DNA of 64,000 bases from an uncultured Phycisphaerales bacterium (GTDB taxonomy: Bacteria; Planctomycetota; Phycisphaerae; Tepidisphaerales; Tepidisphaeraceae). The stretch lies in NCBI GenBank assembly GCA_963758525.1, contig CAVWVQ010000003.1:1152001-1216000 (forward strand), in the 5' to 3' direction. A program made the translations under genes and the position numbers. Positions 49,184 through 62,942 of the stretch are shown piece after piece; position 1 is the stretch's first letter; every line of letters starts with the position of its first letter. Under the pieces are notes generated by a model. The model was not told the DNA's origin and searched no databases. It saw only the letters and a list, made by a program, of their open reading frames with translations.

Positions 49184-52100
49184 CTAATTCGTCGGCACGT
49201 TGGTAATCCCCGGCTGCGTGTTGTTCGTCGGGGTAATGGTCGACCGATCAATGATGAACGCGCCGCGCCGTTGCGCCACCAGTTCCGGCGACGACGTTCC
49301 CGCGTTGCGCCATCCCTGCACGATCACGTACGCGGTGAACGAATCGGATCGCGTCGTGATCAGGTTGCTGATGCGATTGAGGGCGAGATTCTGATTTTCG
49401 AAGTCGCCGTAGACCTGGTCCGCGCCGGCGGTGGCGGAGTTGGGAGACAGATCGCCGTCTACATTGGACGCGTGCTGGCCGGGAACATTCAGAAGCACAT
49501 TGGTGGTGGGTGTGTCACTCAGGACAGTGCGGATCAAAGTCCCCTGCGGGAGCGGGCCGGGGACGCTGATCGGAACGTTATTGAGCTCAAATATACTTTG
49601 GAACGCTCCGTGCGGGTGCCCTGGAGTTGCCGGTGGCATGGGATTGGCGACCGTCTTGTCGTCCACATCGCGATAATAGACGATCGACTGGGCGATTTGC
49701 TCAGCCTCCTGTGCGGCGGTGTTCGGGGACGCTCCAAATTGCACGCCGTCGACGAATGGAAGCGTTGCCAGCACGCGCCAGTTCGCGGTGTTGATATTGA
49801 TTCGGCCATGCACCGGAACCGTTTCTTCCGTCGCCGATGGGGGAGTGTTGCTGAGTTGCGCGTTAGCGACGGTCGAGCTGACATTCGCGACCGGTTTCGG
49901 AGCGGGAGTCGCGGGATACGCGGCCGGGTCGACGTCAGGGAGATAGTCATCCTGCGGAGACTGAACGGTCACGTAATCGAAGAGACGCTGGGTCCAGTAG
50001 TATTGCGTAGGGGTCGGCCAATAGACCGGCGCGGTGGGGGCCGCCGTTGTGGGGACAAAGGGATATATGAAGTCGTCCCATGGCGGAGAAGTAAGTGTCG
50101 CATCGATTTCGGTAGGAGAGACGGGCTTGCCGGTGGCGTCGACGGTATCCGCCCAGTGGATCGGGCAGAATCGGCCGACATTTTCGCGGCCGAACTCAAT
50201 CGATGTAACCGCATGGGGATCCTGATTTTCTGGAGCGTCATTTGCAAGCGCACTGTCGGAGGGAAGCGAGTTGAGTTCGTACAGCTTCGTATTATCGAGG
50301 CTGGTGACCTGGTACGCGCCGATGAATGTGACCTGCAGCAAATCCACATTGCGGGCGAAACCGCCGAAGGGGAATAGGTTTGCCGAAGTGGTTGCCATGT
50401 TCGGCCCCGGGAAGGAGGTGTTGTTGATCTGCAGCGGGCGATCGATATAGGAACTCTCGCTGGCAGTCGGGGTGATCAGCGTTGAGGGATCCATCTTCCC
50501 GAGCGACGCCAAGGTCGTGGTCTGCGGGCTGGTATTTGAACCCACAGTTGCATAGGTCCCGGCCTGCCGCGGCGACATCGGACCGGTATTACCGTTATAG
50601 ATTGGTCCGGGATAGACAAAGTGCCAGGCCTTCCCGAAGCTGGGATCACTGGGGCGGATATAATGCCATTCATGCCCAGGGTCCGCGTCGGTTTGCGGCA
50701 GGCCCGTGAAATCGTAGGCGTCGACCGGCACCGTCGCGGTTCCGCCGCCAGTGAAGAAAGCAGGAGGCGTGCCCGGCGTCGCTGACACTGGCCGCAACAG
50801 GACCAGCTCGCTGTCCAACGCGCTCGCCAGATCGGGGAGCTCAATCAGCGCCGGCGACCCCCCGACGGTAGCGGTGGGAAGTCCCGAGATCGCCGCTGGC
50901 GGTGTTTTCGATGAGGCAAGGACGATAAAGCCGTTCTTGGGAACGACCGGACCTGTTGTGGCCCAACTGGTCGTCCCGGCGCCGACCGTCGATGGAAGCG
51001 ACGTTACCGTCAGTTGGTTCAAGCCGGTCCCTGGTCGCTTGATCGTGGCGAGCTGCCATCCGTTCAGGGGGATGTCGAACGGATACGGGTTGTACAACTC
51101 CACTGCAACGTAAGCCATCGTCGGGTCCCCGCCGTCGTGGGTGTTGGCATACACCTCCGTGATGAACGGCTGCGGCGCGCTGCCGTAGACGGTGATGTTA
51201 TACGCGGGGGTCCCATTAGCGTCGGTGATGCTGATGGTCTTGCTCAATGGAGCGGTTGTACCGGGGTTGGGAGAAGGAGTGCGAAGCTGCAGCGTGTTGA
51301 TCGCCGCCAGGGCCGCGCACAGCTGCATCTGCGGGAATCCCGGCGTGCCATTGCCCTGACCTGATATCTCCCAGGGGAAATTGCTGGCGGGATAATTGAC
51401 CGTGCGAATTGACGGCTTAAACATCGCGGTCATTCCCAGAGTCGTTCCCAGAGACGTCGCGGTCAGCGGGGCATCGGTCATTGCCGAGTAATACGCTGGC
51501 CAAAGTTGGCCGAATGTTGCGGTGTTCGCCGACGCCTTGGTGGGTCCGCTGCTCCACGACTGCGGCTCCCAGTAGGCGGTGCTCACGCCGGTCTGCGGCG
51601 AATTGCCGGTGTTCTGCTGCATGCAGACGTACGAGCGCGTAACAGTCTCAACTGCATGAGAGACGGGATCGGTGTAGGCATTATCTGTGAACGTAACCCA
51701 GTCGCCAAAGTTGTACTTCAAGGTATTGTCCCACGCGCCGCGGGCGGGCAGCTTGCTGAACGTGAAATTCGAGACGCCGTTCTGCGTGACCAGCATCGAT
51801 CGGAGCGGGACGGTGGCCGCCGCGTTGGCAAAATCGAAATTCGTCTCCGCCCAATTCAGCCAGTTGCTGGGCGAATAAGGCGAAGATGGAGTTCCCGCGA
51901 AACATGAATTGGGAAGATCCTTCTCCAGCGCCGACGAGCTCTGCCCCGAGGGGTTGTGCAGCACGAACCGGTAGGCCATCGTCTGCATTTCCGAAGTGGG
52001 AAGCGCCAGAAATTTGTCGGTGGCGGTGTTGTAGCCGGGATTGCCCAGCCGGCGGCCCAGTTGCATCCAGAATGCCTCGTATTTGGTGGCGAAGCTGAAA

Positions 52101-53194
52101 TCGGAGCGCAGCGCGCCGCTGTCGTCATACGCCGGGATGAGGGTGGGAGCGCTCGCCAGCGCGTCTTTCAATCGATCGTTGGTGTTGAACGTATCGAAGT
52201 TGGCCGCCTGATCTCCTGACACGAGCAGATCGAAGAGATCGATGTTGGTCGGAAAGAAATTACCCGGCAGCACCGTTCCCGCGTCGTATGGCTTCCAAGC
52301 GATGGCGGCATTGATCGCGGCGGCGTTATCGACGATGCGCACGCCGCCGTAATACGTCACGCCGTTGATTTGGCCAATGGGAAGCCGGAACAACCCGGCG
52401 TCGGCGATCCCGTCGCCGTCGGCGTCCGCCGCGAGAACCGTGTAGGTGGTCGTCGTCGGTGGATTGCCGGCGGGAACTCCGGACGTGGTTTGCTGAAAGT
52501 CAAACGCGGGATACGTCACATTTTGCGCCCCCCCGCCGCCGCTCACCGACCAGGACAGGCTCGTCGGGGACATCTGCGAATCCGTCGGGTAGGTCTGCGA
52601 ACGAACATGATAAGTATTGGTTGGCGGGGTGGGATGGGTGATGCCGGTTCCCGCAGTATTAACGTATGGCGTCTCAAACGTCTCATACGTCTGTTTGCTT
52701 GGGAGCGACGTGACGAAATTCCACAACGGGCGATTCCCTAACGCGACCGGGAGCGTCGGATATTGAGCCGTTGGATACCGATCGGCGATGAATCCGCTCT
52801 GCGGATTGCCCGGATAATCGGAGACCGCGTAGGCATTAGGCGTGCTGGGCGACGTCGTCGGATAGTGGAAGACCGGCGTGTTCGGCGCGGCGGCGGTGGT
52901 GCCGAAGACAGAGGCGGCGACGCCGGACTGCGTGATGTTTTCGACACCCTGCAGAAGCAAATCGATTTCGGTGTTGAACGAGTTTTGCTGCGAGGAGTAG
53001 CGGTCGGTCTGAGCGGTGTTGATGTAGGCAGTCCCCAGCAGTGCCAGCAGTACGAGCAGCGCAACGACGAGAATCAGGACCGACCCGGGCCGCGATCGGC
53101 GCAGGCGCTGATCGAACCGGTCGAACATTCGCAATCGTCTGACGGGGATTCGCGATTTCATTGCATTGTCTCCGAAGCGACACTCAGGCTTCAT
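49184..53194 (-). CDS. Very large GspK/PilX-like minor pseudopilin
   Basis: RRSRPG-SVLILVVALLVLLALLG N-terminus without Glu5; GRININTA; ITTRSDSFTAYVIVQG; last gene of the pilin operon; start 53194 or 53161. Confidence 0.75.
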   Translation of the reverse strand: MKPECRFGDNAMKSRIPVRRLRMFDRFDQRLRRSRPGSVLILVVALLVLLALLGTAYINTAQTDRYSSQQNSFNTEIDLLLQGVENITQSGVAASVFGTTAAAPNTPVFHYPTTSPSTPNAYAVSDYPGNPQSGFIADRYPTAQYPTLPVALGNRPLWNFVTSLPSKQTYETFETPYVNTAGTGITHPTPPTNTYHVRSQTYPTDSQMSPTSLSWSVSGGGGAQNVTYPAFDFQQTTSGVPAGNPPTTTTYTVLAADADGDGIADAGLFRLPIGQINGVTYYGGVRIVDNAAAINAAIAWKPYDAGTVLPGNFFPTNIDLFDLLVSGDQAANFDTFNTNDRLKDALASAPTLIPAYDDSGALRSDFSFATKYEAFWMQLGRRLGNPGYNTATDKFLALPTSEMQTMAYRFVLHNPSGQSSSALEKDLPNSCFAGTPSSPYSPSNWLNWAETNFDFANAAATVPLRSMLVTQNGVSNFTFSKLPARGAWDNTLKYNFGDWVTFTDNAYTDPVSHAVETVTRSYVCMQQNTGNSPQTGVSTAYWEPQSWSSGPTKASANTATFGQLWPAYYSAMTDAPLTATSLGTTLGMTAMFKPSIRTVNYPASNFPWEISGQGNGTPGFPQMQLCAALAAINTLQLRTPSPNPGTTAPLSKTISITDANGTPAYNITVYGSAPQPFITEVYANTHDGGDPTMAYVAVELYNPYPFDIPLNGWQLATIKRPGTGLNQLTVTSLPSTVGAGTTSWATTGPVVPKNGFIVLASSKTPPAAISGLPTATVGGSPALIELPDLASALDSELVLLRPVSATPGTPPAFFTGGGTATVPVDAYDFTGLPQTDADPGHEWHYIRPSDPSFGKAWHFVYPGPIYNGNTGPMSPRQAGTYATVGSNTSPQTTTLASLGKMDPSTLITPTASESSYIDRPLQINNTSFPGPNMATTSANLFPFGGFARNVDLLQVTFIGAYQVTSLDNTKLYELNSLPSDSALANDAPENQDPHAVTSIEFGRENVGRFCPIHWADTVDATGKPVSPTEIDATLTSPPWDDFIYPFVPTTAAPTAPVYWPTPTQYYWTQRLFDYVTVQSPQDDYLPDVDPAAYPATPAPKPVANVSSTVANAQLSNTPPSATEETVPVHGRININTANWRVLATLPFVDGVQFGASPNTAAQEAEQIAQSIVYYRDVDDKTVANPMPPATPGHPHGAFQSIFELNNVPISVPGPLPQGTLIRTVLSDTPTTNVLLNVPGQHASNVDGDLSPNSATAGADQVYGDFENQNLALNRISNLITTRSDSFTAYVIVQGWRNAGTSSPELVAQRRGAFIIDRSTITPTNNTQPGITNVPTN

Positions 53195-53216
53195 CAATAC
53201 GCCTTCTGTCTCGACT

Positions 53217-53317
53217 TCCCCCTCCCCTGGTACTTCGGGGAGGGCAGGGGTGGGGGCGCTGAGTGCTCGCCAGCGAGCCCCCACCCTAACCCTCCCCCGG
53301 AGTACCAGGGGAGGGGA
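53217..53317. repeat. Paired CCCTCCCC-type palindromes
   Basis: CCCCTCCCCTGGTACTTCGGGGAGGG and CCCTCCCCCGGAGTACCAGGGGAGGGG in inverted orientation. Confidence 0.85.
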
Positions 53318-53370
53318 CAAGAGCTTGGGGCGCTCGACACTGTCGGGCCGGGGGCCGTTTGCTGATGCAT

Positions 53371-54900
53371 TTACTGTTGCGCTCCCAGGTCGATGACATA
53401 TTCATACGTCTGCGGCGTCGCCAACCGTCCGGACGGATCATCCAGCGACAGCGTGATGCGAAGCATGCGTGGCAGGCTCGATCCTTGGCCGGTGCCGACG
53501 GGCCACATGGAATTCTCTGATCCCCACGAACAAAACAACTGTGCGTTGTTGTCGAGACTTCCGGGAACGGCGTAGTTCGTATTGGGCGCGAAGAGCCAGG
53601 ACGGGAATTCCCATGGTGGGAAGGACGCGGTAGAAGGTGCCTGAAGGCCCCCGCCACCATCAGGTTGTGGAGTTTTTTCCACATCGCGGAGGGGCACGAC
53701 ATCGTGCTTGGCGTCGATAGCGCCATCGCCGTCCGTGTCGCGCGGAAAGCCGTACCAGCGGATCTTCCTCTGTCCATTGATGACCATAAAATCGACCTGG
53801 CCATCGCCCTGTATCGCGGTCACGGCACCGTCACCGGCTTGGCCGGGTGTGTTTGTTTGGGTGAGATAGTCGCCGGCATATTCGACGATGAACTGCGAGC
53901 AGTGATTCAGAAAGATCGGCGCGACGCCTGCCGTCGTCGCGGCGCTGAGCGGCTTGACCGGGAACGGGTCGGCCTGATAGCGGGACACTGGTTGAGTTGA
54001 AGGACCCGCGAATGCCGCCGGAGCCGTCAGCATCATCGTCGATCGGAGCGCCGGAGTGTTGAACACATTAAATGAGCTGGCGGAGGCTGCGACGATGTCG
54101 TAGCGCGATGAGTAAATAGGAACATTTTTGCCATCACTGCTCAGGGCACCATAGCCGAGCGGGTTGTTGCTGGTGGTGGGCGGGTTCGGCGAAACGACAG
54201 GTGGCGCCGTGATGTAGACATCGGTTCCGCTGCTGGCGCTTGGCACCAGCAACATCGCGATACGGCCGAGAATCCATTCGGACGCGTAACGGTTGTTATC
54301 GTTGTGCTGTGAACCGTTGTCCGGGTCGCCGGGACCGAACCAAGCCGCATTGCTACCGGCAGGAACCTTCGCCTGATCATTGTTTGGCAGCACCAGGTGG
54401 CCATACCAGATGAATGCATTGGAACTGGTGGTCGGAGAGACGAAGGTGCCGTCATTGCCCGTCTGCCGCGGATACAGATCGCCGCTGGCAAAAAACCCGA
54501 GCGTGTCGAGCCGGAAGTTGCGGTTGCTGGGAAGGACATTGGAAACCGGCTGCGCGGTTCCGTTAATCGTAATCATATTAGGCACGCCGCTCGGCTCGTT
54601 GGCGAAGTCCTGTGCCGTGTTAAACGCGTAGGTCCGCTGCGAGGTGATCAGCAGCGCCGGCTGCGAGACGGTCATTGCGTTGTGGATATCTGTATAGAAA
54701 CTGAAATGTGCCGTGCGCTCGTCGCGCGTGATGGCGCTGAATGCCTGGCCCGCGCCCACGGTTTGGGCGCCGATCTTGAACACCTCGTTGATGCCCAGAA
54801 TCAGCACCAGCGCGATGGCGATCGACACCATCAGCTCGACCATGGTGAAGGCGGACCGGCGTAGCGGCAGGGGAGAAATAGTCTGTCTGATGCGAGCCAT
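53371..54900 (-). CDS. Prepilin-type protein, GspJ/PilW-like position
   Basis: RRSA-FTMVELMVSIAI; C-terminal LPRMLRITL. Confidence 0.8.
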   Translation of the reverse strand: MARIRQTISPLPLRRSAFTMVELMVSIAIALVLILGINEVFKIGAQTVGAGQAFSAITRDERTAHFSFYTDIHNAMTVSQPALLITSQRTYAFNTAQDFANEPSGVPNMITINGTAQPVSNVLPSNRNFRLDTLGFFASGDLYPRQTGNDGTFVSPTTSSNAFIWYGHLVLPNNDQAKVPAGSNAAWFGPGDPDNGSQHNDNNRYASEWILGRIAMLLVPSASSGTDVYITAPPVVSPNPPTTSNNPLGYGALSSDGKNVPIYSSRYDIVAASASSFNVFNTPALRSTMMLTAPAAFAGPSTQPVSRYQADPFPVKPLSAATTAGVAPIFLNHCSQFIVEYAGDYLTQTNTPGQAGDGAVTAIQGDGQVDFMVINGQRKIRWYGFPRDTDGDGAIDAKHDVVPLRDVEKTPQPDGGGGLQAPSTASFPPWEFPSWLFAPNTNYAVPGSLDNNAQLFCSWGSENSMWPVGTGQGSSLPRMLRITLSLDDPSGRLATPQTYEYVIDLGAQQ

Positions 54901-54909
54901 GCAAGTCCT

Positions 54910-56145
54910 TCAATGCAGTGCGAGGAACGTGGTATAGGCGGCGACATCCTGAACCGGGCCCGAATATGTTGTCGTGGCCGCGTTGGAATCGGAATAGCCG
55001 GCGCCGATGACCATGACGGTTGAATTCGCGCCGGGGGCGTACGTGGCGTTGGCCATGTCGTTCCCAGGCGCCAGGTTCCAGATGTTGCCGCTCGAATTGG
55101 TTCCGAGGCGGTAAATCCAGCCGTTGGTGTTGCCGGCATTTGAGTCGTTGGCGATGACGACAAAAGCGCCGTCGGCGAGGCATCCGAGATTGCTCTGGCC
55201 GGCCACGTCGGCGAACGTGAATTGCTGCTGCGTCGACGTGTTCGTGACAGTTGTCACAGTCAGCGGGCGGGCTTCCAGCGAGGGAATGCCGTTCGTCCGG
55301 GCCGCCAGATCGTTGGAATCGTAGAAGCTGCGGTTCCGCGCCTGCACGCCGATCAGAATCACCTGCACGTACGGCTGCCCATTGACCTGGCGGTACAACG
55401 GGATCCACGCATAGCGCGGATCGCTGGGCAAAATCAGGTTCCCGCTGATGAGCGGCCAGAGCGTGGTATTGGTCATCACCGGCTCGCCCGCCACCGCGGT
55501 TGGCCCGATCGGATGAACGTACCCGTCAGGCATCGTCGCGCTGGCGACCGCGCCGGCGGGTGTGTACCAGTAGCTCTGCGTGTTGTATTTCGCCAGGTAC
55601 GAAACCCCGCCCTTGGCGATCGTCGCGGCTGTCGTCTCTTCACTGGTGGCCTGCGTCTGCTTCAGTGCCACTGGAAAAATCGCCGCGATCAGGATGAAAC
55701 CGATGCCGAGAATCAGCACCGCGAAGAGAATTTCGGTAAAGGTGAATCCGCGGCGAGTGCGCGATCTGAGCGGCAAAGACGAAGAGCCGCGAAGGCGCCC
55801 GCCACGGCCGGCAAGCTGCGGCGCGAAGGCAGACGCGAAGCGGGGGGAAGGAACATTTCCGCGCAGTTGAGAAATCTCCGGAGCGACATGACTGGTTCGC
55901 TTCTCTCGTTTTTTCGTCACACGGTGCACTTTGAGAATGCACGACGGGGTCAAACCGTTCACGAAAAGTGCGCGGCGACTCTCCCAATTAGTGCTTCTTC
56001 TTCGCGTCTGCCTTCGCGCCGCAGCTTGCCGGCCGTGGCGGGCGCCTTCGCGGCTCTTCGCATTTTGCAGTTCGGCCGAACGGTGCGCCGCCGCCGGCGT
56101 TTCACGACGGGTGCTGGTGCGAAGTTGATGATTGCTGCCGGGCAT
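54910..56145 (-). CDS. Prepilin-type protein, GspI/PilV-like, with a repeat-containing leader
   Basis: RRG-FTFTEILFAV...AIFP; ATG at 56145 follows GGAG and the upstream stop, frame open for 133 aa to the cleavage site. Confidence 0.75.
   Translation of the reverse strand: MPGSNHQLRTSTRRETPAAAHRSAELQNAKSREGARHGRQAAARRQTRRRSTNWESRRALFVNGLTPSCILKVHRVTKKREKRTSHVAPEISQLRGNVPSPRFASAFAPQLAGRGGRLRGSSSLPLRSRTRRGFTFTEILFAVLILGIGFILIAAIFPVALKQTQATSEETTAATIAKGGVSYLAKYNTQSYWYTPAGAVASATMPDGYVHPIGPTAVAGEPVMTNTTLWPLISGNLILPSDPRYAWIPLYRQVNGQPYVQVILIGVQARNRSFYDSNDLAARTNGIPSLEARPLTVTTVTNTSTQQQFTFADVAGQSNLGCLADGAFVVIANDSNAGNTNGWIYRLGTNSSGNIWNLAPGNDMANATYAPGANSTVMVIGAGYSDSNAATTTYSGPVQDVAAYTTFLALH
55780..56060. 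repeat. Perfect 61-bp inverted repeat with 159-bp spacer
   Basis: 55780-55840 is the exact reverse complement of 56000-56060. Confidence 0.92.
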
Positions 56146-56152
56146 TCTGGTG

Positions 56153-57361
56153 TTACTCCGCGCGAATGAGCGTGCCGTTGTAGCGGTTGATGAGGATTGG
56201 AGCGCTGTTGGTGTCGAGCCAGACTTCCTCGTCGGCCTCGGTGGGAGGCGACGCCGCGGGCGTGCTCGCCACGCCGTAGCCGTTCGGTACACCAGTCGGA
56301 TCGAGCAGGTCATCTCCGATCGTTCCGCCGAAGTTGTTGAACGCTTCACGGTCAAAAAGCACGAACCCGAATTGGGAGGAAAGAGCCGCGGGCGGCGTGT
56401 AATCGACCTGCGGCGTCGGCATGACGGCGTTGGACGGAATCCCGAAAATATATTGGGCAAGGTTCGACGGGCTTGTCGAGTTGGACTGATGCAGCTTCAG
56501 GCCGTAGGTCTTGCTGGTGAGCCGGCCGTTCCCGTCGAAGAGAATCGCGCCGCCAATGCGCACCGCGGCATTGCCGCCGGCGCTGGTGATGGTGTCCGCG
56601 GCGCCGGGAGACGGGAGCGGGTTGAAGCCGATGTAGCGGTCCGGCAGGATTTGGGCGGTGTTCCAGTAGGTCGCATTGGGAGGTTCATTGGCGGTGCTGG
56701 ATACATTGGTAAGCTTGCAACTATAGAAGCTTCCGCCCACCTGCACGAGCGCGTTCTGTGCATAGGTCTGTCCCGCGGCCCAGGCGGGCGGCACCACGCC
56801 TCCATTGTTGATGACCTGCAGCCCGATCCCCGATGGCAGTTGCAGAAATTCACGGTCGGGAACGATGTCGAGATAGTACGTGGCCGGAGTCGCGGTCAGC
56901 GGGGACTCGTCGCTCGAGTCGAGCGGCACGGATTGAACGATCGACGCATTGATGCGATCGGTTGCCGGATCAAGCCAGAAGAGCACGCCGTGCACTTCCT
57001 GCAGGCCGACCGCCTCCTCGCGCGCCCGCGTGATCAGCGCCGACAGCGTGTTGTACCCCGCGTCGATGCTCCGCGAGCCAGTGAGGCCGCGGATCGCCGG
57101 GATCGCCATCGCGACCAGGAGGATGATGATTCCGATGACGACCACCATTTCCGTCAGCGTGAAGGCGCGGGAAGGCACGAAGGCACGGACGCACGGAGGC
57201 ACGGAGGGTGACGAAGGGTCTGGGGAAGGCACGGAGGCACGGAGGCACGGAGGCACGGAGGGTGAGGAAGGGTGAGGACGCGAAGAGAAGCGAAGCGACA
57301 AAAATCCCCTTCCTTCCCTTCGTGCCTTGGTGCCTTCGTGCGTTTGTGCCTGCGTTTCCAT
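56153..57361 (-). CDS. Prepilin-type protein, GspH/FimT-like, with a repeat-containing leader
   Basis: SRA-FTLTEMVVVIGII...RAREEA; ILFDGNGRL; ATG 2 nt after the upstream stop. Confidence 0.8.
   Translation of the reverse strand: METQAQTHEGTKARREGRGFLSLRFSSRPHPSSPSVPPCLRASVPSPDPSSPSVPPCVRAFVPSRAFTLTEMVVVIGIIILLVAMAIPAIRGLTGSRSIDAGYNTLSALITRAREEAVGLQEVHGVLFWLDPATDRINASIVQSVPLDSSDESPLTATPATYYLDIVPDREFLQLPSGIGLQVINNGGVVPPAWAAGQTYAQNALVQVGGSFYSCKLTNVSSTANEPPNATYWNTAQILPDRYIGFNPLPSPGAADTITSAGGNAAVRIGGAILFDGNGRLTSKTYGLKLHQSNSTSPSNLAQYIFGIPSNAVMPTPQVDYTPPAALSSQFGFVLFDREAFNNFGGTIGDDLLDPTGVPNGYGVASTPAASPPTEADEEVWLDTNSAPILINRYNGTLIRAE
57170..57345. repeat. GGCACGGA/GGCACGAA octamer element inside a prepilin leader
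   Basis: Same architecture as 47795-47965, including GGGAAGGAAGGGGATTTTTGT. Confidence 0.85.
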
Positions 57362-57363
57362 TG

Positions 57364-58053
57364 TTAATCTTTGGAATAGATGTTGTCGTCGCCCTTGGCC
57401 TGGGTGGCGCCGGTGCGCGCCCCGAAATCACCGTCAGGGCCTGCTGAGGCGAAGAAGGGGCGGTTGGCCTTCCCGGCCACGGTGATCTGCGTCGGGGTAT
57501 TTCCGTTTCCAGTTGTAACGTAGACGATCATTCCACCCCGCGGCACATAGATGATCGGATTGCCCCACCCGTCAAGAAGAACTGGAATCGTGTACGGGTT
57601 GCCGTTTGAGTCTTTCAGAATCTTGCTGGTTGGAAAAGCGGCGATCGCTTTCGCGTTGTTGGGAACGCGCATCAGCGACGCCATCGCGCCCTGGGTCTGT
57701 TGCACGATAAAGCCGGAGCGGTCTGCCTGCCCCGACGTGACATCACCGATTTCCCAAGCCTGTCCGGCCGGCCCAGTGATCCCAATACCAATGACCGGCT
57801 GAGGGAAACTCTTCATGAGGACCGGGTCGTAGTATGAATACGTCGGCAGCGCATTGCTCCCCGCCGTCGCCTCCAATTCCGCGAGCATCGAGTTGAGGTT
57901 ATCGAGCGTGACTTTCGTCTGATTCGCCGCGGCCGACCGCTCGACCACCTGGAAGCCGATCACAGCCAGCGAGATCAGGATCAGGATGACCCCGATCACA
58001 ACCAGCACTTCCAGCAGGGTAAAGGCGCTTCGCCGACGTTGCACGATGATCAA
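57364..58053 (-). CDS. GspG-like prepilin
   Basis: RRSA-FTLLEVLVVI, LDGWGNPI, SAGPDG...DDN. Confidence 0.85.
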   Translation of the reverse strand: MIIVQRRRSAFTLLEVLVVIGVILILISLAVIGFQVVERSAAANQTKVTLDNLNSMLAELEATAGSNALPTYSYYDPVLMKSFPQPVIGIGITGPAGQAWEIGDVTSGQADRSGFIVQQTQGAMASLMRVPNNAKAIAAFPTSKILKDSNGNPYTIPVLLDGWGNPIIYVPRGGMIVYVTTGNGNTPTQITVAGKANRPFFASAGPDGDFGARTGATQAKGDDNIYSKD

Positions 58054-58094
58054 CTCCTCGAGGGTATTGTTCGGGATGTCCAGCCGCCGAGAGA

Positions 58095-58240
58095 AGGTGA
58101 TTGGTGATTGGAACGTGACGGAAACGCAGAAAATTGCACGGCAGGAGGCGATTTGTCACGTTCCACGTTCCAATCACCTCTTCGGGGCTTTGTCACGTTC
58201 CACGTTCCAATCACCTCTTCGGGGCACGTTTCAATCACCT
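58095..58240. repeat. CACGTTC/CAATCAC heptamer element with a 37-bp tandem duplication
   Basis: 58152-58188 equals 58189-58225; inverted arm at ~58095-58118. Confidence 0.85.
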
Positions 58241-59203
58241 TTTTCCGACGCCCTCCCGCGGCTCGGGTCCCTTCTCATAACTGTACAAATTGTCATCCTG
58301 CGTCAGATAACGCCGGTCGGGGCCGGCGGAAAAGAAGAATGAGCGGTCCTGGGGGGCGATTCCGATCTCACGATGCATCGACGGCATGAACACAATCGGC
58401 GAGCCCCAGGCGTCGCTGAGCGTCGCCTCGTTGTAGATCGAATCAGGCAGGCCGCCGAACAGGTCGGAGCCGCTGCCGGCTTCAAGGCGCAATGCCGCGA
58501 CGAAGTCGCGATTGTTCTCGAACGCCCGCTGCTGCAGCGTTGCCTCATTGAGATGATCGGGGGCATTGGCAAACGGCGCGATCGCGGGCGTCCGGCCGTC
58601 GTGATGCAGCCGGTATTGGGCCAGCAGCACGTCGCACTGATAGAGCAACTGCTTGGTGAGCTTGACGGACGAGTCGTTGCGCACGTATCGCGCCAGATCG
58701 ACCATCAGCCCCAGCACAATCACCAGGCCGGCCACAGTCGTGAGCATTTCCAGGAGGGTGAAGCCGCGGCGGCTGGGCTTGACGTCCCCTGCTGCGCCCT
58801 CTCCCGGTACTCCGGGAGAGGGTTGGGGTGAGGGTGATTTCGAGGTCGAAAGTCTCTCGCACTCGCGAAGGATTTCTTCCAGCACCGGGTCCAGGTGCAG
58901 TCGTACATCCGTGTTGGTGAAACGGATGACGTGCGATCCGCCACGCACCAGGCGCTGTGTGCTGCGAGCGTCGTACTCAGCCTGCTCGGCATGAGAGTCT
59001 CCATCCAGCTCAACGATGAGCCCGGCTTGCGCAGTAAAAATCGGCGATGTAGGGCCGTTGCGGCGACTGACGCTTGAACTTGAATCCATCAAGCTGCCGG
59101 TCGCGCAGACGTTTCCACAAAATCGATTCGGCCGGCGCGGCGCGTGCCGCATCTGGCGGACCCGCTCGAGAAGATCGGCATGTGTGAGGGAATTCTTCGG
59201 CAC
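58235..59203 (-). CDS. GspG-like prepilin with an N-terminal DUF559 (Vsr-like nuclease) domain in its leader
   Basis: LIVELDGDSH...YDAR...VIRFTN...VLEEI, then PSPQPSPGVPGEG, then RRG-FTLLEML, DAWGSPI, SAGPD; AESILWKRLRDRQLDGFKFKRQ and PYIADFYC occur in a shifted frame ~59035-59135. Confidence 0.75.
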   Translation of the reverse strand: MPKNSLTHADLLERVRQMRHAPRRPNRFCGNVCATGSLMDSSSSVSRRNGPTSPIFTAQAGLIVELDGDSHAEQAEYDARSTQRLVRGGSHVIRFTNTDVRLHLDPVLEEILRECERLSTSKSPSPQPSPGVPGEGAAGDVKPSRRGFTLLEMLTTVAGLVIVLGLMVDLARYVRNDSSVKLTKQLLYQCDVLLAQYRLHHDGRTPAIAPFANAPDHLNEATLQQRAFENNRDFVAALRLEAGSGSDLFGGLPDSIYNEATLSDAWGSPIVFMPSMHREIGIAPQDRSFFFSAGPDRRYLTQDDNLYSYEKGPEPREGVGKR

Positions 59204-59231
59204 GGGGGCGGTTTTGTACGCTCGAAAGGCA

Positions 59232-59270
59232 CCCTCACCCTAACCCTCTCCCCGAGTACCGGGAGAGGGG
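59232..59270. repeat. CCCTCTCCC palindrome flanking DUF559 (partner at 58797-58835)
   Basis: CCCTCACCCTAACCCTCTCCCCGAGTACCGGGAGAGGG, inverted relative to CCCTCTCCCGGTACTCCGGGAGAGGGTTGGGGTGAGGG. Confidence 0.88.
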
Positions 59271-59293
59271 ACCAGAGGGAAGCTCGAGGCGCG

Positions 59294-60151
59294 TCACTGA
59301 TTGAAATTGGTTACGTCGTCGGTCTTCCCGTTGGAATCGTAGCCCCAGAGTTCATCCGAGCCGGCGCTCCAGAGGAGGTAGGGCGCTGTCGTCGCGGGAG
59401 TTTCACCAAGCGTCGGATCAATTGCGCCATCGGGCACACCAGGCGACGCGGTGCTGGTGGTGTCGCCGAGGATTCGCTGCATGTCGACAAGCAGAAATGG
59501 ATTGTTTGTCTTGATGCTGTTCTGAGAATAATCGTACATCGGAACCACCGTGGCAGGCGTTGGTGCCAGGGGTGTTTGCCCTACGAAAGCGCCCGCAGCA
59601 TTAATACTGGCAACCGGGTTCGCCCGGAAGTAAAGGTACGGTGTGCCGCGGACATCGTTGATCGTCGAGTCCAAATTGCTGGTCCCGGTGATGCCGAATT
59701 TATCCGGCGGAATGTACGGACCGTAGGTTTGTCCCTGTGTTCCGCGGATGCGGAAGCCGGGACCGTCGGCGCCGTCTCCGCTGATGGTCAGCGGCGCGGC
59801 CGACGGAGGAGCTGGAGTCGATATTGCCGGGCCCGGAGCAACCAGCGCCCAGCAGAGCGCGACGGCTCCCAGTCGATCTTTCTCAGTTCCGAGTATCGTG
59901 ACCGGATTGTTCACGGACATATCCACCGGCGGATAGTCCTTGAAATCCTTCCGATACTCTTCGAGCCCCTGCGCAATGACCTGCAGATCGAGTGCGATTC
60001 GCGTGCGCGTTGCGCTGCGGCGAGCCCGCAGCAGCACCGGCAGCGTGATGCCGATGACGATGATAATAATAGTGACCGACACCAGCAGCTCGATCAGCGT
60101 AAAGCCGTTGCGCTGGCGCAATCGGAAGTTAATTGCTGGAGATGATGTCAT
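59294..60151 (-). CDS. GspG-like prepilin
   Basis: RNG-FTLIELLVSV, EYRKDFKDYPP, WSAGSD...DDV. Confidence 0.85.
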   Translation of the reverse strand: MTSSPAINFRLRQRNGFTLIELLVSVTIIIIVIGITLPVLLRARRSATRTRIALDLQVIAQGLEEYRKDFKDYPPVDMSVNNPVTILGTEKDRLGAVALCWALVAPGPAISTPAPPSAAPLTISGDGADGPGFRIRGTQGQTYGPYIPPDKFGITGTSNLDSTINDVRGTPYLYFRANPVASINAAGAFVGQTPLAPTPATVVPMYDYSQNSIKTNNPFLLVDMQRILGDTTSTASPGVPDGAIDPTLGETPATTAPYLLWSAGSDELWGYDSNGKTDDVTNFNQ

Positions 60152-61265
60152 CTTTGGTTCCGAAGATTCGATCAGCTCCAGCGGAGATCAGCAGGAACGT
60201 GTCTTTGCCCTTGGGGGTGGGCTCGCCCGTTGCCGGAAGGGTGAAGGCCGGGTTGGCAATGTAAACGTCCGCATAATCGTACGTATACGTAGTGCCCGTC
60301 GGCGGATTCGGACTTGGGAGCGGAAAATCCGTCTGGCTCACGCCGGTCGTGACGGTGGGCGACGGTACCGCGACGGGGCTAAAAGAGTAGGGGAACAAAT
60401 GCTGGAAATTGTATTGAAAGCTGGCCGCCGTGCCCGTTCCTTCGTACAGCATTTGGGTGGCGCCGACGCGGGCTCGCAGGTAGAGGATCGGGCCGAAATT
60501 GTAGTTTCCATTGCCGCTGATGGGGCTGCCGGGCGGGCCGGTGATGTTTCCGGGAATGTGATCGAGATATTCCGGGATGTACGAGTCGCCCGTCCCAAAT
60601 TCCTGGTATCCGTGCGTCGGATCGCCCGGTGGCAATTCCTCCGGCTTGGGGGTGAAGTATGCGGTTGTCTGCTTCTGCATATTTAGCAGTACATTGAGCA
60701 CCTGCGGCCCCTTGCCGATGGACGTGAAATCATAAAGCCAATTTTGCACCGCTGGAGGCGTCGCCGTCGTATAGGAGAGATAGACTCCGCCGCTTAAACC
60801 AAGAACGAGATTCTCACTTGAGGTGATATCTGTTACCGCTGGAGTACCGGTGATGTTCTCCAGCAGTGCGAACGTGGGGGGGATTTGCGTTGGCGGAACC
60901 GGCGCACTCCCCGCGACTGCGGCCGCGGCGGCCGCGTCAATGTCGTTTTGCGCAATCGGCCCCGGATACGCACGAAAATCCTGATAATACGCCTGGCACG
61001 CGGCGCCGATCGTCGCCATCTCCTGCTTGGTGCTGGTGACGAACGCGGCCTTGCGGACGCTGGCGACGACCGGGAGCAGAATCCCGATGAGGATCACGAT
61101 GATGCCGATGGTGACCAGCAATTCGATGAGGGTAAAACCGGGGCGGGAAAGGCACGAAGGCACGGAGGCACGAAGACACGAAGGGAAGGAAGGGGATTGG
61201 GATGGGAAAGGCGCGGAGGCACGCGGAGAAGAACGGTGAAGCGACGGACGATCGCGCAACGTCAT
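60129..61265 (-). CDS. GspG-like prepilin with octamer repeat in its leader
   Basis: PSCLRASVPSCLSRPG-FTLIELLVTIGII, YYQDFRAYP, ISAGAD...DDI. Confidence 0.85.
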   Translation of the reverse strand: MTLRDRPSLHRSSPRASAPFPSQSPSFPSCLRASVPSCLSRPGFTLIELLVTIGIIVILIGILLPVVASVRKAAFVTSTKQEMATIGAACQAYYQDFRAYPGPIAQNDIDAAAAAAVAGSAPVPPTQIPPTFALLENITGTPAVTDITSSENLVLGLSGGVYLSYTTATPPAVQNWLYDFTSIGKGPQVLNVLLNMQKQTTAYFTPKPEELPPGDPTHGYQEFGTGDSYIPEYLDHIPGNITGPPGSPISGNGNYNFGPILYLRARVGATQMLYEGTGTAASFQYNFQHLFPYSFSPVAVPSPTVTTGVSQTDFPLPSPNPPTGTTYTYDYADVYIANPAFTLPATGEPTPKGKDTFLLISAGADRIFGTKDDIISSN

Positions 61266-61275
61266 TGGGGGCCGC

Positions 61276-62556
61276 TCATTTCTTGGTTGCCTGGGAGCTG
61301 ATGCCGTTGATCAGCGTGATCATGGGCATGAACAGGGCGATGACGATGAAGCCGACGATGACGCCCAGGACGACGACCATGACCGGTTCAAGAATGCTGA
61401 TGAGGGAGCCGACGAGCACGTCGACGTCGTTGTCGTAGTTGTCGGCGACTTTGAGGAGCATCTTGTCGAGATCGCCGGTCTCTTCGCCGACGTCGATCAT
61501 ATTGACCACGATGGCGTCGCACACCTTGGTGGCGCGGAGCGGGTCGGCCATCGATTCACCTTCGCGGATGGCGTCGTGCACCTTGAGCAGGGCGCGGGCG
61601 TAGACCTCGTTGCCGCTGGTTTCCTTGGTGATCATGATCGCGTCGAGAATCGGGACGCCGGCGCTGATGAGCGTTCCCAGCGTTCGCGTGAAACGGCCGA
61701 TCGTCGACTTGGAGATGATCATCCCGAGGATGGGGATTTTGGTGGCGACCAGATCGACGGCGTATCTGCCGCCGTCGCTCATCCGCAGCAGCTTGAGCAC
61801 GCCGGAAGCGACAAACGGAAACGCGATCAGGTAGGCCCACCCGTATTGGTTGGCGAAGAAGTGGCTCAGCAGCAGCAGAAACTGGGTGGGGGCGGGCAAT
61901 TCGAGCTTGAAGTCCTTGAAGATTCCCTCGAACTTGGGAATGACGAAGATCATGATGACGGTCACCACGCCCACGGCGATGCTGATGACCACCGCCGGAT
62001 AGATCATCGCGCCGATGACCTTTTTCTTGAGCTTGGCGGCTTTTTCCATGAAGTCGGCGAGGCGCGAGAGGATGAGATCGAGCACGCCGCCGATTTCCCC
62101 GGCGTTGATCATGTTGACATAGAGCTTGTCAAACGCCTTGGGGTACTTGGACATGGCGTCGGAGAGGGTGCCGCCCCCTTCGACCTCGTCGGAGACGCCG
62201 CCGATGATCGCCTTGAGCAGGCCGGGCTTTTGTTGGGATTCGAGAATCTGCAGCGAGCGAAGAATCGGCAGGCCCGCGTCCTGCAGCGTGGAAAGCTGGC
62301 GGGTGAAGCCGACGAGCTGCTTCTGCGGCACGCCGCCGAAGGAGATCGGCATCTTGCGGGTTTTGACCGGTTCGGCCTCGGCAACCGCGCCCTTCTTGCC
62401 GGCCTTTTTCTTCCCGGCGGCTTTTTCCCGGACCTTGGTCGGGAAGAAGCCCTTGCTGCGAATGCGCTGAATCGCCTCCTCCGACGAGGCGGCTTCGATT
62501 TCGTCCTTCACTTCCTGTCCGGAAGTGTTCATCGCTTCAAATGAAAACGTCGGCAT
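61276..62556 (-). CDS. pilC: Type II secretion/type IV pilus platform protein PilC/GspF
   Basis: FTRQLSTL, AGEIGGVLD, AMIYP, VGEETGDLD, ILEP. Confidence 0.93.
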   Translation of the reverse strand: MPTFSFEAMNTSGQEVKDEIEAASSEEAIQRIRSKGFFPTKVREKAAGKKKAGKKGAVAEAEPVKTRKMPISFGGVPQKQLVGFTRQLSTLQDAGLPILRSLQILESQQKPGLLKAIIGGVSDEVEGGGTLSDAMSKYPKAFDKLYVNMINAGEIGGVLDLILSRLADFMEKAAKLKKKVIGAMIYPAVVISIAVGVVTVIMIFVIPKFEGIFKDFKLELPAPTQFLLLLSHFFANQYGWAYLIAFPFVASGVLKLLRMSDGGRYAVDLVATKIPILGMIISKSTIGRFTRTLGTLISAGVPILDAIMITKETSGNEVYARALLKVHDAIREGESMADPLRATKVCDAIVVNMIDVGEETGDLDKMLLKVADNYDNDVDVLVGSLISILEPVMVVVLGVIVGFIVIALFMPMITLINGISSQATKK

Positions 62557-62639
62557 GGCGAGGTCTCCGCGTACAGCCCCACAACATTATTCGTCGTGTC
62601 CAGCAGCCGGGGGAAGCGGACATTACGCTGCCGGCGGCA

Positions 62640-62932
62640 AAACCAGAATGACGAAACCAGCATCCCGAATCAAACAATCAAACCAGAATGACGAAACCAG
62701 AAAGCAGAATCAAACCAGAATGACGAATGACCGAATGAAGAGTGAACGCACAATTGGCGGCCTCGCCCCCCGGTTGTGGAGCCCCGATCGCCGCCTGGGT
62801 CGGCTGCACTGTAGATTGCGGTCTCTTCATTCGGTCATTCGTCATTCTGGTTTCTGGTTTCGTCATTCGGACTTCCGCCCGAAGCGGCGGCGTCACTCTG
62901 ATTTCGAACTTCGTCATTCGGACTTCCGCCCG
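62640..62932. repeat. GAATGAC/AAACCAG heptamer inverted-repeat element
   Basis: Perfect 31-bp inverted repeat 62712-62742/62823-62853 plus extra tandem units. Confidence 0.88.
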
Positions 62933-62942
62933 AAATGGCGGC

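Follow-up and report, generated by a model that had tools for sequence, protein, structure and literature searches.

Inteins are selfish DNA that occupies a conserved coding site, is translated together with the host protein and is removed after translation. Small repeats lying in frame within genes (PMC10969869, PMC3184786) and RNA-guided insertion sequence (IS) elements of the IS1111 group (PMC11208160, PMC11187229) are already known from the parts of these papers considered here. The prepilin leader, according to the relevant passages of PMC10191384, is variable in length, lies in the cytoplasm, ends in Gly or Ala and is removed by the prepilin peptidase. The present analysis concerns a 64,000-nucleotide (nt) stretch of DNA from an uncultured Phycisphaerales bacterium, all of which is hereafter called the window, and the genome that holds it (G000; 6.47 Mb, 61% G+C). 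The minus strand of the window carries pilB and pilC followed by seven N_methyl-type prepilin genes, p1–p7, with repeat DNA ahead of several cut sites; elsewhere in the genome an IS110-family element sits on the cut-site codons themselves. Judged from sequence, it is likely that both the repeats and the IS lie in frame before the cut site and are translated as extra leader, which would be removed by the peptidase to leave the mature pilin unchanged. The IS clade is far stronger evidence for the leader as a refuge than the repeats of the window, as it shows selection for read-through directly, and the small repeats fit passive survival. Residues are numbered relative to the cut site, written G/A↓F.

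An IS110-family Element on Prepilin Cut-site Codons

Three of the prepilins listed for G000 shared an open upstream stretch of 580 codons, which proved to be an IS110-family element lying antisense to the pilins. Its copies in this genome are as follows.

G000:C3:2706497, 3871507, 4128498 and 4130672, strand opposite to the pilin: IS copies (L001–L003), 1,695 nt each, two in adjacent pilin genes

All four are located on G/A↓F codons, add 565 codons that are open throughout in the pilin frame, and terminate in RRPLHG↓FTLxE. Homologues of ∼50–86% identity were collected from 27 GTDB loci and 80 of 100 metagenome loci, giving 107 in all. The right junction was located in 96 of the 107, with prepilins as the target in 76 of 78 readable right flanks, and an in-frame host start lies within 50 codons in 41 of 44 left flanks. 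The 61 complete copies range from 1,590 to 1,899 nt, a length divisible by three being observed in 58 and a fully open pilin frame in 56; 40 of 44 distinct types are fully open. As the lengths of the copies vary widely, many insertions and deletions must have preserved the frame. The RPLHG end is present in each of the 62 in-frame copies, and the 710-amino acid (aa) read-through protein produced NCBIfam matches to pilin models only.

The non-coding ends of the 42 in-frame types contain no stop in 8,752 pilin-frame codons, compared with 270 and 261 in the two sister frames. Within the transposase gene, the codons TTA, CTA and TCA, which read as stops from the opposite strand, account for 3 of 15,632, as against 54 of 7,617 in 20 other IS110 loci (30 were fetched; nine had no open reading frame (ORF) by pattern and one was that of G000 itself) and 34 of 5,916 in the 17 left after removal of three doubtful ORFs. 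These counts bear on the possibility that the open frames arise incidentally from high G+C and codon bias, or that a protein belonging to the IS itself is encoded opposite the transposase. An in-register antisense frame open over 377 codons does occur in 268 of 1,501 host genes, and the antisense frame is open in 4 of the 20 control IS110 genes, as a by-product would predict. However, codon bias does not account for a single stop-free frame through non-coding DNA, nor for divisibility by three across many different lengths, and the open frame has neither a start nor a stop of its own and is highly variable over its first 90 residues, which speaks against an encoded protein. This explanation is largely refuted by the stop counts and lengths, and we consider it extremely improbable.

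The transposase matches PF01548 and PF02371 (DEDD and Transposase_20) and scores 184 bits against NF033542 (cut-off 140), and on these matches the IS is assigned to the IS110 family. Sub-terminal inverted repeats of 10 bp (GGCCCCTACA / TGTAGGGGCY, from 57 distinct junction sets) and a long downstream non-coding end (in G000 the transposase is followed by 483 nt and preceded by 78 nt) mark it as IS1111-like at the sequence level. The ends extend beyond the repeats by 7 nt on the left and by 4–5 nt on the right, depending on the placement of a shared A; PMC11187229 gives IS1111 elements a left extension of 7 bp and a right one of 3 bp. At the left junction the Phe codon is either TTC (34) or TTT (23) and at the right junction it is TTT without exception (54 of 54), placing the crossover at the A that follows the Phe codon. 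Four guide-like segments in the long non-coding end match by pattern in 49 of 62 copies; in 40 of 62 the two target guides (left, then right) precede the two donor guides (left, then right). Guide and target covary: 31 of 42 cases agree at the –1 codon and 40 of 48 at the Phe codon. Structural support for the predicted guide RNA is mixed; a consensus fold from 14 sequences has compensatory changes in 16 of 45 pairs, and some guide bases are themselves paired in this consensus.

A second explanation of the open frame is that it only maintains ribosome cover, sparing transcription of the downstream pilus genes, with the fusion degraded and the interrupted pilin lost. Many of the targets are indeed in operons, 40 of 60 read-through peptides contain a hydrophobic stretch (a 19-residue window with a Kyte-Doolittle value of at least 1.6) that could disturb topology, one of the four IS-bearing host pilins in G000 is truncated to 36 aa past the cut site, and the G-F at the IS end is partly set by donor-guide pairing. 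If ribosome cover were all that mattered, however, neither a length divisible by three nor the invariant RPLHG end would be called for, whereas in 58 of 61 copies the element is fused in frame with the mature pilin. Moreover, most host pilins remain long open frames, and many of the targets have N termini that we take to be DUF1559-type, in genes that often stand alone. Loss of the pilin with protection of its operon is therefore regarded as quite improbable.

The IS end pattern was found in none of 400 other genomes of the phylum that were searched, and the element is thus patchy. Neither an excision joint nor a circle joint of the IS appears in the contigs of three low-share soil DNA runs (one study), the cover of which is very low.

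Some short host leaders end in RRPLHG or close to it, at G000:C3 +687729 and +4773164 and in five left flanks (L115, L116, L136, L141 and L156); perhaps these are footprints of earlier insertions or re-targeted sites. At four further positions (G000:C3 +4930281, –3070570, –3075174 and +2708192), a degenerate upstream (G)FTLVE motif is followed by Pro in the leader, which suggests other insertion or duplication at cut-site codons. Close to the IS-filled pilin cluster, a PilC/GspF paralogue (G000:C3:4123754-4124942) was matched in two pieces, owing to either a frameshift or an assembly error.

The Pilin Cluster of the Window and Its Repeat-filled Leaders

The genes of the cluster are listed below, with leader lengths as predicted.

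61276-62556, minus strand: PilC/GspF platform gene, first in the pilin cluster, which served to locate orthologous operons
60129-61265, minus strand: prepilin p1, predicted 43-aa leader ending RPG↓FTLIELL, F+1 at 61136
59294-60151, minus strand: prepilin p2, short repeat-free leader, ATG –16 or TTG –6
58235-59203, minus strand: prepilin p3, predicted 147-aa leader behind a DUF559 remnant, ending RRG↓FTLLEML, F+1 at 58762
57364-58044, minus strand: prepilin p4, leader of 7 aa, GTG start with a Shine-Dalgarno (SD)-like motif, no repeat origin
56153-57361, minus strand: prepilin p5, predicted 66-aa leader ending SRA↓FTLTEM, F+1 at 57163
54910-56145, minus strand: prepilin p6, predicted 133-aa leader ending RRG↓FTFTEIL, F+1 at 55746
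53371-54900, minus strand: prepilin p7, 17-aa leader, repeat-free

Each of the seven genes has a class III signal peptide, with Gly or Ala at –1, a hydrophobic stretch of 20–25 residues and usually Glu at +5. Pfam N_methyl matches six of them at E ≤ 0.01, four of these above the cut-off; DUF559 is the sole Pfam match of p3, yet its G↓FTLLEML is directly readable. The genome also encodes prepilin peptidase of the A24 type, with two PF01478 matches above the cut-off. An ATG overlapping the pilC stop (61276-61265) opens a mini-frame of five codons that ends in a stop overlapping the p1 ATG and may act as a coupling relay.

The repeats in and between these genes comprise several unrelated families, none with an assigned strand.

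61145-61198: GGCACG(A/G)A octamer array within the p1 leader, stopping 8 nt short of the cut site
58778-59288: palindrome-DUF559-palindrome element, with CCCTC(T/A)CCC hairpin arms at 59230-59288 and 58778-58836
58086-58243: GGAACGT/GATTG heptamer element in the p3–p4 gap, intergenic, an internal control
57161-57351: GGCACG(A/G)A octamer element with two arms, occupying the p5 leader, stopping 5 nt short of the cut site
55775-56065: inverted-repeat element in the p6 leader, with arms at 56000-56065 and 55775-55840, CGCGAAG octamers and a hairpin sub-motif

A preliminary description of the window, made from its letters, had proposed that four of the seven leaders are built from repeats that remain in frame up to the cut site, and all four were recovered (p1, p3, p5 and p6). 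The same holds for its placement of the p5 ATG 2 nt past the p4 stop (TAA), and the p6 inverted repeat that it gave as 61 bp measures 61 nt at 100% identity, or 66 nt at 97%. The p6 ATG lies 7 nt past the p5 stop, and both ATGs are in frame. Its statement that none of these repeats was seen in the mature pilin parts was likewise borne out, repeat-masked bases being present in the mature part of none of the seven window prepilins and of one of 62 genome-wide (17 of 48,006 nt). The octamer family has ∼120 loci in G000 and the palindrome family ∼170; of 26 genome matches to the p6 hairpin sub-motif, six fall within 90 nt of a prepilin cut site.

The p3 leader consists of a DUF559 remnant plus a 3' CCCTCTCCC palindrome, and no start codon is present downstream of that palindrome; the frame begins at the GTG of the remnant itself and not at the p2 stop. 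The middle of the remnant (about 59140-59030) is in another frame, so that two frameshifts compensate. As the soil contigs cover the window in pieces only and both frameshifts are outside that coverage, an assembly error may apply there. An intact palindrome-flanked DUF559 gene at G000:C3:1103306-1103629 continues through its 3' palindrome as well, in the register used at p3. Two pieces from one soil run (X2), possibly from the source sample, match 55566-55910 at the end of the p6 leader with one difference and no gap, and 57285-57476 at the start of p5 with no difference.

The weight of an open frame differs between leaders. The two other frames contain three and two stops over the p6 leader and one and two over the p3 leader. 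No stop occurs in any of the pilin-strand frames over the octamer arrays and the p6 arms, and all three frames are open throughout the p5 leader. Being in frame is therefore weak evidence in these stretches; for the octamer arrays this argument was rejected.

Upstream of pilC, p4 and the pilX-like gene, repeats also occupy ordinary intergenic DNA of the operon, and thus their mere presence proves nothing. The heptamer element before p4 is intergenic, as p4 has its own GTG and SD-like motif after it. A GAATGAC heptamer element with inverted arms occupies the pilB–pilC gap (62636-62941) and is also intergenic. A CCCTCCCC palindrome pair (53215-53317) lies between p7 and the pilX-like gene (49184-53320), the frame of which is open through the pair from a TTG, with later ATGs also available. 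Repeats related to those of the leaders flank DUF559, PF13366 and PF05635 genes, an association only. In G000, octamer or heptamer arrays like the leader repeats flank the PF13366 genes (4 matches) and seven of eight viewed PF05635 genes; these are small PD-(D/E)xK-type and four-helix-bundle genes and possible autonomous partners, and none of those viewed has flanks of the GGCACG(A/G)A type.

It is accordingly necessary to consider that the small repeats of the window are intergenic, with the pilins starting at late GTG or TTG codons within or directly behind the final repeat units and the long leaders never made; the IS is beyond the reach of this explanation, which we regard as unlikely. Late starts are available at p1 (GTG –9) and p5 (GTG –5), both within the last octamers, and at p6 (TTG –10), and would bypass most of the repeat. 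None of the three has an SD-like motif and the p6 ATG at –133 has one, but such a motif precedes only 682 of 2,151 G000 genes tested, so that its absence says little. Translation from such internal codons, which the preliminary description had named as telling against it, has candidate starts at p1, p5 and p6 and none at p3. The explanation also sits poorly with the p5 and p6 ATGs, placed in frame directly behind the upstream stops, and with the p6 leader, open for 133 codons in one frame and interrupted in the other two.

Orthologous Leaders in Relatives

Orthologous operons were examined in 20 relatives, in which every pilin was compared with p1–p7 of the window; divergence among the orthologues is too great for exact repeat boundaries. 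Empty and filled forms of the same leaders were observed, as the preliminary description had anticipated, relatives having either short leaders or other repeat families. Orthologues of p1 start with ATG at –13 (G003) and –6 (G015). Ahead of p3 the gap measures 36 nt in G003 and 531 nt in the window; that before p5 is 49–73 nt in G003, G016 and G017 and 200 nt in the window; and that before p6 is 34–90 nt in G007, G016, G011 and G003 and 406 nt in the window. The p5 leader site holds other repeats in four relatives (G001, G002, G007 and G018). In G018, a heptamer fills six of seven pilin-gene leaders, and other repeat fillings are found in G001, G002, G007, G011 and G023.

Across the relatives and the window, 25 of 73 inter-pilin gaps contain repeats. 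In 9 of the 25 a start codon follows the repeat, as it does at p4, and those repeats are therefore intergenic. In the remaining 16, as at p3, no start follows the repeat, which is difficult to reconcile with late initiation. The first ATG near the upstream stop is in frame in 8 of 11 cases without a later start, compared with 2 of 6 with one.

Predicted Repeat Translation in Prepilins Genome-wide

The prepilin set of G000 comprised 62 motifs, 59 of which were tested, the three IS-filled ones being left out. Genes were called with a home-made hexamer model (4,862 genes), 4,494 other genes serving as controls, and repeats were masked as non-coding 16-mers seen at least eight times, giving 2,397 blocks. 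The stretch that must be translated was defined as that after the latest possible ATG, GTG or TTG, and a gene was scored positive with at least 16 repeat bases in this stretch. With all three start codons thus allowed, obligatory translation of repeats is predicted for 7 of 59 prepilins, including p1 and p3, and for 67, 25 and 8 of the 4,494 controls when these were anchored at 0, +30 and +60 nt, respectively. The odds ratios are 9, 24 and 75 (Fisher p = 4e-5, 1e-7 and 3e-10). Merging four look-alike leaders reduced the count to 4 of 56, with p = 0.011, 4e-4 and 9e-6 at the three anchors. The persistence of the enrichment with every possible late start conceded argues against the intergenic-repeat explanation, and bears out the enrichment in prepilin leaders that the preliminary description had expected.

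Upstream of the latest start, repeats are present at 10 of 59 prepilins and at 551–626 of 4,494 controls (p = 0.3–0.45). The rate near cut sites is close to the upstream rate of ordinary genes, which fits passive tolerance rather than targeting. Active targeting by the small repeats is unsupported overall, one hairpin sub-family having the six of 26 matches at cut sites given above. Shared ancestry of the filled leaders was also rejected, the mature parts past residue 70 having no mutual blastp match at E 1e-4. Three of the eight repeat-translating controls (C1 –283493, C3 +4342564 and C3 –2599668) resemble Sec or lipoprotein signal peptides by eye; as these look like cleaved N termini, the refuge may extend beyond prepilins.

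Proposed Mechanism

Two modes of using the leader may be envisaged. In the passive mode, unrelated families of small repeats, some of them remnants of nuclease-carrying elements, would spread through non-coding DNA, and copies falling between the start codon and G/A↓F would be tolerated if they add no stop, so that the leader behaves as intergenic DNA. In the built-in mode, the IS would insert antisense to the pilin, directly at the A that follows the Phe codon, by means of RNA guides that appear to match G[GC]N-TTY-A and TTC-ACN-CTG. The whole element is divisible by three and free of pilin-frame stops, and a basic RPLHG↓F site is supplied by its end. Ribosomes starting at the host start codon would translate through the insert, the prepilin with its 570-aa leader would enter the membrane, the host prepilin peptidase would cleave at the rebuilt G↓F on the cytoplasmic side, and working pili would result. 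A widespread IS clade probably lives in working pilin genes, guided by RNA to the cut-site codons, open over all 1.6–1.9 kb of its opposite strand (the guide RNA region among them), restoring the cut site through its own end and removed as leader, which would be intein-like but free of splicing, with the small repeats as passive users of the same refuge. The proposal of the preliminary description that insertions survive through host proteolysis is supported, as far as sequence can tell, by the filled and empty orthologues, the enrichment, the A24 peptidase genes and the stop-free IS clade.

A number of observations weigh against this account. In addition to the late starts at p1, p5 and p6, the frame-independent openness of the octamer arrays, p6 arms and p5 leader, the nine restarting gaps, the truncated G000 pilin and the hydrophobic read-through peptides, the repeat-filled gap before the p3 orthologue in G002 has its pilin frame closed 30 codons upstream, with only a TTG at –18. 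Five of the 61 complete IS copies are not open, and the copies, being related, do not count as independent events. In a single fold the predicted guide RNA is no more stable than its shuffled versions (z = –0.03). One IS variant (L022) has a stop just beyond the transposase start, and its own ATG and a purine-rich site before RPLHG↓F, and may restart the pilin. Finally, both the gene model and the control anchors of the enrichment test are home-made and fuzzy.

Should the account hold, removal by a host processing enzyme would add a third harmless mode for selfish DNA in genes, beside RNA splicing and protein splicing. It predicts a prepilin peptidase that accepts leaders of several hundred residues. 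The IS would provide a natural bridge recombinase that tolerates wobble positions so as to recognise a protein motif, and would place three overlapping constraints on one stretch of DNA, namely transposase, guide RNA and open opposite frame. For annotation, pilins with odd long N termini may be real, and pilin genes that seem interrupted by this IS may be intact.

Comparison with Known Systems

Rickettsia palindromic elements and intragenic fusions of miniature inverted-repeat transposable elements or repetitive extragenic palindromes are, in the parts of PMC10969869 and PMC3184786 considered, likewise small non-coding repeats in frame, with empty and filled orthologues. The repeats of the window resemble them in being multi-copy and in frame and in having short orthologous gaps. 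They differ in retention: the peptides of the Rickettsia elements are kept in the mature protein, whereas in the window several unrelated families gather in the segment that would be cut off. The text available of PMC10969869 has no occurrence of pilin, signal peptide or leader, and the pilin passage considered from PMC3184786 deals with Neisseria pilE/S recombination.

The IS shares with IS1111-group IS110 elements with a bridge or seek RNA, as the main texts of PMC11208160 and PMC11187229 describe them, a DEDD transposase, sub-terminal inverted repeats, a long guide-bearing downstream non-coding end and one fixed target. It differs in that the target is a protein-processing motif in host genes and in that its opposite strand can be read in frame without a stop. 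The term in-frame has no occurrence in either main text, and pilin occurs in a reference only in PMC11208160 and not at all in the main text of PMC11187229. The literature searched yielded no account of mobile elements within prepilin leaders or of an IS with an open opposite strand, although its supplements could list such targets.

Type IV prepilins, in the passages of PMC10191384, have the same variable leader, Gly or Ala end and cytoplasmic cut; the leaders here would be 43–147 aa of repeat origin, or ∼570–640 aa with the IS, a size that does not appear in those passages. Inteins resemble the IS and repeat leaders in their conserved coding site, their translation with the host protein and their removal after translation. 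Unlike inteins, the leader inserts would have no splicing domain (none is among the Pfam matches of the window leaders) and no ligation, and would depend on the normal single cut of the host peptidase, upstream of the cut site only.

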